From the NCBI GenBank assembly GCA_903889965.1, contig CAISZM010000028.1:9831-73830 (forward strand): 64,000 nt of DNA. The letters run 5' to 3'. This DNA comes from an uncultured Elusimicrobia bacterium (GTDB taxonomy: Bacteria; Elusimicrobiota; Elusimicrobia; Elusimicrobiales; UBA9959). The notes beneath the pieces were generated by a model, which saw only the letters and a program-made list of their open reading frames with translations, ran no database searches and was not told the DNA's origin. The translations under genes were made by a program, and so were the position numbers. Below, piece after piece: positions 9,221 to 10,900 of this stretch (positions are counted from its first letter, which is position 1; each line of letters begins with the position of its first letter).

Positions 9221-10900
9221 ATGGATATGAAAAAAACAAAGCTCTGGATCGCCGCGGCGCTCTTCTTCGCCTGCCCGGCCGTAAATTCTCTGGCCGCCGG
9301 CTTTAAAATGAACTGGGTAGAAACCGAGGTGGTGGTGGACAAGGACGGCAAGGCCCAGGTGTCGTACGCGGTGAGGTGGACAGGCCAGGGCGGGCAGCTG
9401 CACGGCTTCTATTTTGAGGGCTTTCAGGAGACCCCGGTTTTCGATAACGAGCACGCCTACGCTCTCGACAGCGACGGAAATAAGTACCGGCTTGAGATCA
9501 ATAAACTCTCCGATAAAAAATACGACATAATACTGGCCGGAGGCCAGGCCTTCTCCCAGGGGGAGATAACTTATTTCTTCCGCTACGCGGCGGACCTCGA
9601 GGATTCCGGGAACATCACGCAGACCATGGACGGCGACAAGCGGCTCGCCGTGTTCAACTGGTCTCCCGTGCAATGGGACGATGCGCTGGATCACGAGGCG
9701 CTGACCGTGCGCTTCCCGGTCGCGCTCGCGGCCCCGGCGGTAGACGACGCCGTCCTGGCCAAGCTGTATTTCCGCACCGAGAAGTTCGTGAACGAGCGCT
9801 ACTCTATAGACTATCCGACGGTGAAGAACGCCGAGGGAAAGGATGTTTTCAGCGTCAGGTTCTTCCGCAAGGGGCTTGGCAGCCGCTATCATTTCCAGGT
9901 GCAGGTGTACCTTGACGCGGTTAATTTCGGTCTGAAAACAATGGCCTACGGCAGCCTGACCGCGGCCGCCCCGGCTCACACTAAATATATGCCGGCTTAC
10001 GAGGGGTTTTACCTTAACCGCCTGTTTCCCGGCAGCATGCTTTCCGGCTTCCCCATGACCCGCGGCGAAACCATATTCCTGATAATGATCATGGCGGTGT
10101 TCTTTGTGGCCGCGCCGTTCCTGATAATGACCGCGAAGCACAAAGCTATGCTGACCGCGCAGGCCGGCATTTCGGCGGTGAACTGGGACGGTACGGAGTG
10201 GACCCCTCCCAAGTCCCAGTTGAGCAGCTTCCGCGTACCCGGCAAGATAGCGAAGAACCTGAACCCGCTGGAGGCGGGCGTAGTGATGGGGCTCCCGATA
10301 TCGGAAATGCTGGGCCTGATGGTGGCCAATATGGAACGGAAGGGACTGCTCAAGATAAACGCCTACTCGCCGCTTACCGTGGAGCGGCAGCCCGGCATTA
10401 ATTCCAGCAACGATCCTTATGAGACCGCCCTGCTGGCCTCGATACAGCCCGACGGCACACTGGAACAGGCTGGCGCGGAGGCGGCGCTTAAGACCCTGAC
10501 CTCCGGGCTGGAACAGAAGATATGGGACTGCGACCTGGAGGCCACCAAAAAGTATTACAGCGAACAGTTGGACAGCCGCGGGCAGCAGGGTACGGACACC
10601 GACAATGCCTATTACTGGGGCGGCTTCCGCAGGCATTACCAGAATTATCAAAATCCCGCTTATGACAAAGCCGTCAAAGCGGGCGAGGGGCTTAAAACTT
10701 CGCTGCCGGCCGAGCTTAACTCCGGGTTCGACTCTTTCCGCGGCTCAAAGCTGTGCTATGCCGGCGCTTTTGCCAACTCTGCCTGCCATGACGCGTGCCA
10801 CTCTGCCTGCCATGACGCGTGCCATTCGGCCTGCCATTCAGCCTGCCACTCGGCCTGTCACGGGGCCTGCCACGGGGCCTGCGTCAGCAGCGGCCATTAG
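9221..10900 (+). CDS. DUF2207-like single-pass membrane protein with C-terminal (A-C-H-x)9 Cys/His repeat; candidate radical SAM substrate
   Basis: Signal peptide [14 protein letters not shown]..., '[12 protein letters not shown]' and 'W...W...LTVRFP' DUF2207-like ectodomain, one TM ([19 protein letters not shown]), Cys/His tail; true start may be 9227. Confidence 0.75.
   Translation: [559 protein letters not shown]
10778..10889 (+). repeat. 12-bp coding tandem repeat, about 9 copies, encoding ACH[D/S/G]
   Basis: gcctgccatgac gcgtgccactct gcctgccatgac gcgtgccattcg gcctgccattca gcctgccactcg gcctgtcacggg gcctgccacggg gcctgc. Confidence 0.95.

Follow-up and report, generated by a model that had tools for sequence, protein, structure and literature searches.

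A conserved radical SAM/SPASM gene module found across bacterial phyla points to an undescribed modification on the Cys-His tail of a membrane protein

To our knowledge, almost everything known about radical S-adenosylmethionine (SAM)/SPASM maturases comes from short secreted peptides. On Cys-rich substrates, enzymes of this class form thioethers by default. In the systems CteB/SCIFF, PapB/freyrasin (with six CX3D motifs), SkfB and QhpD/QhpC, the enzyme unites a radical SAM domain, a SPASM domain and an N-terminal RRE, the recognition element for peptides that are made by the ribosome and modified after translation (RiPPs), and each Cys motif is cross-linked nearby; QhpC, a protein subunit, retains its cross-links. 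Among the systems characterised by experiment, the nearest to the genes described here is the pair CrpC/CrpA of Methanococcus voltae (Dieter et al. 2026, PMC13692751). As reported there, CrpC is an RRE, radical SAM and SPASM enzyme with seven SPASM Cys, three of which are assigned to a first auxiliary cluster that offers an open iron to the substrate Cys, and it installs ranthionine cross-links from a Cys to the residue three positions on (motifs CAVD, CAGM and CPLV). The substrate CrpA is given as a 28.8-kDa, uncleaved protein that carries C-x-x-Q/D motifs and a repeat of 17 residues; its processing gains from a third protein encoded alongside, and the Crp cluster is reported to be upregulated on pyrite. 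Here we describe a locus in a 64,000-nucleotide stretch of DNA (the window) from an uncultured Elusimicrobia bacterium (assembly GCA_903889965.1, contig CAISZM010000028.1, positions 9,831 to 73,830 of the forward strand), in which a radical SAM/SPASM gene (gene C) lies between the gene of a membrane protein that ends in a regular Cys-His tail (gene B) and that of a second membrane protein (gene D).

These three genes form a conserved module, and this module points to an undescribed, enzyme-made modification on the tail of a whole protein. Taking all lines of analysis together, we think that C probably modifies the tail of B, most likely by thioether cross-links such as those that CrpC makes on CrpA, with B, C and D acting as one autonomous module (Table 1). 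The seven SPASM Cys of C fit the 3+4 arrangement published for CrpC, and in both cases Cys repeats occupy the C-terminal part of a full-size protein that is co-encoded with a radical SAM/SPASM enzyme, bearing an RRE in CrpC and probably one in C, and with a third protein. The two systems also differ clearly, as C reaches only 57 bits against the CrpC family TIGR04463 (rSAM_vs_C_rich; cut-off 525), the candidate substrate is a predicted cytoplasmic tail of 40 residues on a 559-residue membrane protein, built from a four-residue C-H-x-A unit, and D, unlike the third Crp protein, is a protein with four transmembrane (TM) helices and not a paralog of the substrate.

Table 1. Positions of the module genes, their parts and the adjoining nifU gene in the window
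Feature	Position	Strand	Basis
Gene B, 559-residue single-pass membrane protein with Cys-His tail	9221..10900	+	Open reading frame (ORF) list
B: signal-peptide-like hydrophobic segment, residues 8-26, after Lys4, Lys5 and Lys7	9242..9298	+	Kyte-Doolittle hydropathy; hydrophobic N-terminus across the family alignment
B: predicted extracytoplasmic beta-sandwich, residues 27-232	9299..9916	+	AlphaFold2 (AF2) model, per-residue confidence score (pLDDT) mostly >90
B: predicted TM helix, residues 281-317 in AF2, hydrophobic core 285-303, then invariant Lys306	10061..10171	+	AF2, hydropathy, alignment
B: predicted folded cytoplasmic domain, residues 340-513, a helix-helix-hairpin and then a helical bundle	10238..10759	+	AF2, pLDDT ~86-96
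B: Cys-His tail (A-C-H-x)8-A-C-V-S-S-G-H, residues 520-559	10778..10897	+	First Cys at 10784
Gene C, radical SAM/SPASM enzyme, 453 residues	10925..12286	+	Pfam Radical_SAM and SPASM
C: N-terminal conserved extra domain, residues 1-116, probable PqqD-like RRE	10925..11272	+	Sub-threshold profile matches
C: CxxxCxxC radical SAM motif, C128, C132, C135	11306..11329	+	Invariant in 38/38 aligned members
C: SPASM region with seven invariant Cys, C343, C357, C375, C414, C417, C423, C427	11951..12205	+	Alignment
Gene D, 352 residues, predicted four TM helices and cytoplasmic alpha/beta domain	12283..13341	+	AF2, hydropathy
NifU proper	13417..14277	+	TIGR02000, 348 bits against a cut-off of 273

Other described systems resemble the locus in part. 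C shares with the maturases of ranthipeptides and sactipeptides the radical SAM and SPASM domains and, probably, an N-terminal RRE, but it remains below the cut-offs of PapB, SkfB, StsB and the other curated maturases, its candidate substrate is a membrane protein's tail, and a leader-cleaving protease or exporter is missing from the module. The targets of CXXX-repeat radical SAM enzymes, systems that were defined in silico, likewise carry a Cys at every fourth residue near the C-terminus and are encoded next to a radical SAM gene; judged by profile length they comprise only ~46-98 residues. A comparison with the models of these targets, suggested by a sequence-only reading that preceded this work, bears out the period-4 spacing, with nine Cys, but not family membership, since the last 59 residues of B score 16.7 bits against TIGR04117 (Syntroph_Cxxx; cut-off 50), with no other family model touching the tail on its own, and 9.6 bits against TIGR04118 (cut-off 35). 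The partner protein of the CXXX targets, TIGR04119 (CXXX_matur), has no match at E<=0.01 in the genome of the window, which is 90.2% complete. B is also similar in layout to DUF2207 proteins, which pass from a signal segment through a beta-rich extracytoplasmic N-domain and a TM helix to a cytoplasmic part, and its language-model neighbours include clusters named DUF2207. As to the earlier assignment of B to this family, the match to PF09972 is only sub-threshold (19.1 bits, E 0.0016, cut-off 24.4) and PF20990 is not matched. Attachment of c-type haem takes place at CXXCH motifs on exported segments; we set such a site aside, since the tail offers only overlapping CX3CH spacings and is predicted to be cytoplasmic. 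In the HXS antiphage system, finally, the His-Xaa-Ser repeats of HxsA are matured by the radical SAM enzymes HxsB and HxsC (PMC13128918), a second precedent for the maturation by radical SAM enzymes of a repeat on a whole protein. The likeness lies in the pairing of a radical SAM enzyme with a His-containing repeat on such a protein, HxsA then serving as an effector, and the difference in a period-4 repeat that contains Cys and sits, by prediction in the cytoplasm, on a membrane protein; also, C does not reach the cut-offs of HxsC and HxsC4.

The tail itself had been read as nine Cys spaced exactly four residues apart with eight Cys-His pairs, and this is what we find, with the Cys at residues 522-554. 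The ninth Cys is followed by Val, not His, and the 40 residues contain nine Cys and nine His altogether; the end at 10900 given earlier includes the TAG stop of gene B (bases 10898-10900). All four synonymous alternations that had been pointed out are present in the codons, namely for Ala (GCC seven times, GCG twice), Cys (TGC eight times, TGT once), His (CAT five times, CAC four times) and Ser (TCT twice, TCG twice, TCA once, and AGC twice in the last unit), and the eight 12-nucleotide units are pairwise identical at 73% of positions on average (range 58-100%). In a six-frame scan of the window, this is the sole period-4 array of at least four Cys. A degenerate DNA pattern of the tail has seven overlapping matches in the 2.24-Mb genome, all at a single site, and a reversed control pattern has none. 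As the tail is unique both in the six frames of the window and in the genome, it is not a product of chance. As limited evidence of stability, the covering contigs of four public runs from four studies, in which rare variants are dropped, show neither substitutions nor indels in the tail. In a look for expression, no RNA run was listed among the nine runs found.

The tail is kept across a wide range of bacteria. A word-based protein search found 21 relatives of B, and every full-length one has such a tail at its end, holding between 3 and 11 Cys (the minimum of 3 in P0012); a relative with 28% identity still ends ACYSACHNACVSGGAR. Scanning one genome per species yielded 73 B loci, 69 with the 3′ end of B on the contig and four in which B runs off it. 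They span more than 12 phyla, with carriers among Elusimicrobiota, Omnitrophota, Planctomycetota, Gemmatimonadota, Desulfobacterota, Bacteroidota, Verrucomicrobiota, Acidobacteriota, Myxococcota, Chloroflexota, Actinomycetota, Alphaproteobacteria, Calditrichia, Cloacimonetes and others, and the carriers among Desulfobacterota include a cultured one, Desulfobulbus alkaliphilus DSM 24258 (locus L044). In each of the 69 complete loci B ends in (C-H-x-A)n-C-V-S-[SG]-G-x-[HRK], and the reading frame and the ACVSxG ending are kept throughout, so that the tail is neither absent nor frameshifted in any of these homologs. Counted over 67 loci with complete ORFs, the tail holds eight Cys in 35 loci, nine in 25, ten in four, eleven in one and four in one; one further locus, L070, was scored with none owing to an ORF-picking artefact on a split gene, and does carry the tail. 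In 494 period-4 units from 66 loci, the first position after Cys (x1) is His and the third (x3) is Ala in 494/494, and the second (x2) is Ser (368), Asp (83), Gly (39), Asn (3) or Ala (1). Over the last 21 residues of the tail, 2211 locus pairs show 95% amino-acid identity versus 48% identity at the third codon positions of identical residues. This comparison indicates that strong purifying selection acts on the tail peptide, and not homogenisation of the repeat. Together with the presence of the tail in all 69 loci, it strongly supports the proposal of the sequence-only reading that selection works at the protein level and that the array is not fresh slippage. Furthermore, in an alignment of 44 sequences, in which the column identity of B is 39% on average, the tail is the most conserved block.

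The wider family is more varied. The B family profile, compared with 1.84 billion cluster representatives, retrieved 725 at E<=0.001, of which 168 reach E<=1e-30. Fifty-two relatives of at least 430 residues were examined; 33 have the tail and 19 do not, several of the latter visibly stopping just ahead of the tail region and some having Arg/Ala-rich ends that resemble frame errors. Two proteins of ~500 residues, P0130 and P0149, match profile positions 3-475, have no Cys-His tail and may be real tail-less paralogs. The end of P0099 (540 residues) resembles the C-terminus of D, and this protein may be a fusion or a chimera. Variant tails occur in distant relatives, with ACVHD units at five-residue spacing in P0111 and P0153 and an alternation of C-D-S-x with C-H-S-S in P0119; these proteins and P0123, among which endings other than ACVSGG are found, could show what the enzyme really needs.

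Tail and enzyme are inherited together. When the proteins of the window were compared with the 73 B loci by tblastn, C adjoined B in all but one of the 69 loci in which the 3′ end of B is complete, and in the sole exception (L045) C (46% identity, E 5e-127) and D lie together on another contig of the same genome. D is present in 61/73 loci, and of the 12 that lack it, 11 lie on contigs that break off before its place. In L057 of the Gaiellales, C is followed by an ORF of 371 residues (9262-10374, +) without a Pfam family, and only a weak D-like tblastn match is seen (58 bits, 10266-10547), so that D may be highly diverged or replaced there. The gene order is B-C-D, or B-D-C in three loci (L061, L068, L071), and B and C as well as C and D overlap or abut in many loci, a sign of translational coupling; in the window, the ATG of D overlaps the TGA stop of C (ATGA). 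In 301 genomes sampled from the phylum of the window, with a threshold of E<=1e-60 for C, the same ten genomes have all three genes side by side on a single contig, and the 291 others have none of them. The distribution is patchy even within the genus, where three of six other genomes are carriers. All-against-all clustering of the ORFs in the 73 loci revealed that only B, C and D are conserved outside the Elusimicrobia loci, and no protease, exporter or transporter is conserved with them. Twenty flanking genes from ten loci of other phyla are mutually unrelated (epimerase, sulfatase, FG-GAP, TPR, histidine kinases, peptidases, ABC transporter, DAHP synthase and others). Because the three genes share a patchy profile, stand between unrelated flanks and have no further gene in common, B-C-D is, by gene content, an autonomous and mobile module without protease or exporter. 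The link between the tail and the radical SAM enzyme, as claimed beforehand, is thus supported by synteny in 68/69 loci, by identical phyletic profiles and by the probable RRE on C. Our searches of open-access literature turned up no description of this module.

Some module genes that align well contain in-frame stops, namely D in L031, L015 and L054, C in L064, and B in a locus of one further genome (G055:C15:167709-169343), where the stop is a single TGA. Such stops could be sequencing errors, decay or recoding, and the rows of L064 and L031 were left out of the module gene alignments. Searched against PADLOC-DB 2.0.0, B, D and the ORF upstream of B match no family, and C has only a generic similarity to viperin-type radical SAM enzymes (E 7e-24). 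A defence-island context is unsupported, given the lack of a PADLOC match for B or D and the heterogeneous flanking genes.

C belongs to the radical SAM/SPASM class, with both Pfam cut-offs exceeded (Radical_SAM PF04055, 83.5 bits against 29.5; SPASM PF13186, 43.3 bits against 21.5, covering residues 357-417), and its SPASM Cys include a Cx2Cx5Cx3C block from C414 to C427. Sequence matches in the Protein Data Bank are SkfB (E 3e-13), SuiB (5v1q), CteB (5wgg) and anSME. None of the 85 NCBIfam families touched by C is reached at its cut-off. The tetrapyrrole families TIGR04545 (AhbD), TIGR04055 and TIGR04051, of the AhbD/NirJ group, give 141, 139 and 106 bits with cut-offs of 500 to 515 (500 for AhbD; NirJ2, at 139 bits, is far below its own), and the 120 extra N-terminal residues of C lie outside this match. 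Further scores below their cut-offs are those of PqqE (114 bits, cut-off 381), HxsC4 (NF038332; 101, cut-off 500), MftC (92, cut-off 265), the ACGX radical SAM family (TIGR04340; 85.6, cut-off 400), HxsC (TIGR03977; 70, cut-off 268) and CefB (68, cut-off 600). As to the N-terminal domain, Pfam PqqD (PF05402) is matched at E<=1 by 10 of 28 members of the C family, with a best value of 0.002, and the next most frequent family by only two of 28. The profile of this domain matches the lasso-peptide RRE TfuB1 (6jx3_B) over its full length at a sub-threshold E of 0.076, and hhalign against PqqD domains from carrier genomes gives a probability of 54% (P 1.3e-4, 65 columns). Since these three sub-threshold results agree, residues 1-116 are probably a PqqD-like recognition element. 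A complex prediction of C, loaded with three [4Fe-4S] clusters and SAM, with residues 335-559 of B gave interface scores (ipSAE) of 0.01 and 0.00, against a mark of 0.32, in a run made without controls.

The AF2 model of B has a mean pLDDT of 84, with values below 50 across the tail. In Foldseek, the beta-sandwich matches the luminal domains of ribophorin I/OST1 and the N-domains of M1 aminopeptidases (E 4e-9 to 1e-6); matches to this N-domain dominate the fold search, which returned nothing on the cytoplasmic domain or the tail. The cytoplasmic domain is marked by the conserved motifs W..W.PP, L.P.EA and K.WD.D.EAT and may be winged-helix-like, a label taken from the pattern of secondary structure only. 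As a single TM helix follows the N-terminal signal segment, the C-terminal half of B including the tail is predicted to be cytoplasmic, which fits hydropathy and charge. The cytoplasmic topology proposed in the sequence-only reading agrees with this profile (signal-like 8-26, one TM core at 285-303, then Lys306), and nothing in it puts the tail outside; by this prediction, tail and C are on the same side of the membrane. Pfam has nothing meaningful at E<=10 for residues 304-559 of B, and NCBIfam has no family match for B. In the window and in three distant loci alike, neither B nor D is claimed by Pfam, NCBIfam 20.0 or PADLOC.

D, whose AF2 model has a mean pLDDT of 87, has no family in Pfam (also nothing meaningful at E<=10), NCBIfam or PADLOC, and its alignment shows no Cys-rich or other obvious target motif. 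Hydropathy and charge place its soluble domain in the cytoplasm. In its fold, this domain is weakly similar to YbjN and to chaperones of type III secretion (Z 6-7.6, with Foldseek probabilities of at most 0.8), and the matches possibly reflect a common arrangement. A fold of this kind holds extended polypeptides, yet the resemblance of D to a chaperone is too weak to lean on.

Among the neighbouring genes, nifU is followed by an ORF (14417..15619, +) that we take, by its motifs, to be a NifS/IscS-type cysteine desulfurase-like gene. The pair lies just downstream of the module only in Elusimicrobia loci, and this restriction led us to reject NifU and NifS as parts of the module. An ORF of 220 residues with about four hydrophobic segments (8555..9217, +) ends four nucleotides ahead of B; it belongs to no Pfam, NCBIfam or PADLOC family, is conserved (37-57% identity) only in Elusimicrobia loci and may be a lineage-specific fourth component. 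The ORFs further upstream, at 3335..5287 (-), 5127..6230 (+), 6308..7996 (+) and 8076..8486 (-), presumably encode two ATPases of the ABC-F type, a protein resembling adenosine deaminases and a small ACT-like protein, and nothing links them to B-C-D.

With this in mind, we propose that C, a cytoplasmic enzyme with the build of those peptide maturases that put cross-links into Cys-rich substrates, would dock on B through its N-terminal PqqD-like domain, through domain-domain contacts, or both, and would modify the tail unit by unit in the cytoplasm. Within each unit, one thioether cross-link would most likely join the Cys to a residue close by, with the invariant Ala (i+3) and the invariant His (i+1) as candidate acceptors. 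Position x2 would not be an obligatory beta-carbon acceptor, because Gly is tolerated there. During the reaction, the first auxiliary cluster of C would bind the substrate Cys at its open iron. D would act as a partner in the membrane and may hold the tail or present it. The product would stay attached to B, as the module holds neither a protease nor an exporter. Its purpose, at our favoured guess, may be a rigid, His-lined array with metal or redox activity on the inner face of the membrane. The analysis establishes the module, its conservation, the class of C and, by hydropathy, the common side of tail and enzyme; we infer that the tail is the substrate, and likewise the kind of bond, what D does and what the system is for. 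A bolder version, which we think rather unlikely, sees the tail as a protein-anchored, enzyme-made cofactor: a small thioether ring in each unit would freeze it into a rigid ladder displaying eight or nine His imidazoles, a multi-site metal or redox rod at the inner membrane face that is coupled through the TM helix to the outward-facing ribophorin-like domain. In such a cofactor, a ring from Cys sulfur to Ala i+3, for example, would be a radical SAM route to a lanthionine-like link.

Several points weigh against a thioether modification of the tail by C. The best NCBIfam scores of C belong to the tetrapyrrole enzymes AhbD and NirJ2, not to thioether synthases, and Gly is found at x2 in 39 of the 494 units. 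The N-terminal domain of C in the window gives no Pfam match of its own, neither to PqqD at E<=1 nor anything meaningful at E<=10, and the TfuB1 match and the hhalign probability reported above are weak. C, as a conserved neighbour, could serve the tail otherwise than by modification, and a tail rich in Cys and His could be conserved purely for metal binding. The main rival, to which we give a real but clearly minor chance, takes up this last point: the tail would be an unmodified array for a metal (Zn, Ni, Co, Cu or Fe), an Fe-S cluster or haem, and C would have another role in a shared metal or cofactor pathway. The density of Cys and His in the tail suits this idea, as do the AhbD and NirJ2 scores, the NifU and NifS-like genes just downstream of the module and the reported upregulation of the Crp cluster on pyrite (PMC13692751). 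Yet these scores are less than one third of the cut-offs, and the NifU/NifS neighbourhood is confined to one lineage. A bare metal array also leaves unexplained why x3 is always Ala, why the spacing of four is strict across phyla and why the tail is co-inherited with an enzyme that bears a probable RRE (10/10 carriers, 0/291 others). Modification and metal binding may both hold if the modification creates the metal site.

It is quite improbable that, conversely, the tail serves C as a donor of Fe-S, sulfur or electrons while C acts on a lipid, a tetrapyrrole or D. The tight linkage of B, C and D would suit such a role, and C resembles many radical SAM/SPASM enzymes with non-peptide substrates about equally well, but the probable RRE points to a peptide substrate and D offers no Cys-rich or obvious target motif. 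Also, we know of no radical SAM enzyme that needs a dedicated, membrane-anchored Cys/His tail as donor. Release of the tail as a free peptide, that is, as a RiPP core cut from B after modification and possibly exported, appears very improbable to us. The layout does recall the logic of a leader with a C-terminal core, and an M48 peptidase in L044, an M28 peptidase in L054 and an ABC gene in L025 lie near the module; only B, C and D recur beyond one lineage, however, so that no protease or transporter is conserved, the carrier is a conserved membrane protein with 520 residues and an extracytoplasmic domain, and the B alignment lacks a conserved cleavage motif ahead of the tail. That the tail is a functionless slippage product or an annotation artefact is hardly conceivable, even though it is a tandem 12-nucleotide repeat whose number of Cys varies from 4 to 11 in the loci, with 3 in P0012, as this is already contradicted by the synonymous differences between units, by the difference between amino-acid and third-position identity and by the constant frame and ending, and no indel appears in the contigs of the four studies. 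We retain modification of the tail by C as the favoured and most economical reading.

In summary, our analysis describes a three-gene module in which the class of maturase is familiar, and in which a membrane protein tail as its substrate would, as we consider probable, be the new part. The extremely conserved four-residue unit would be a simple, repetitive substrate, suited to resolving the chemistry and the order of processing, and experiments are feasible because the carrier Desulfobulbus alkaliphilus DSM 24258 is in culture. If the tail were indeed a cofactor, the module would represent a new transmembrane sensor or metal-handling device that has spread by gene transfer through more than 12 phyla. 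If the favoured reading is true, it would provide a widespread case of a radical SAM/SPASM maturase that acts on a membrane protein's cytoplasmic tail and whose modified product is kept in the cell.

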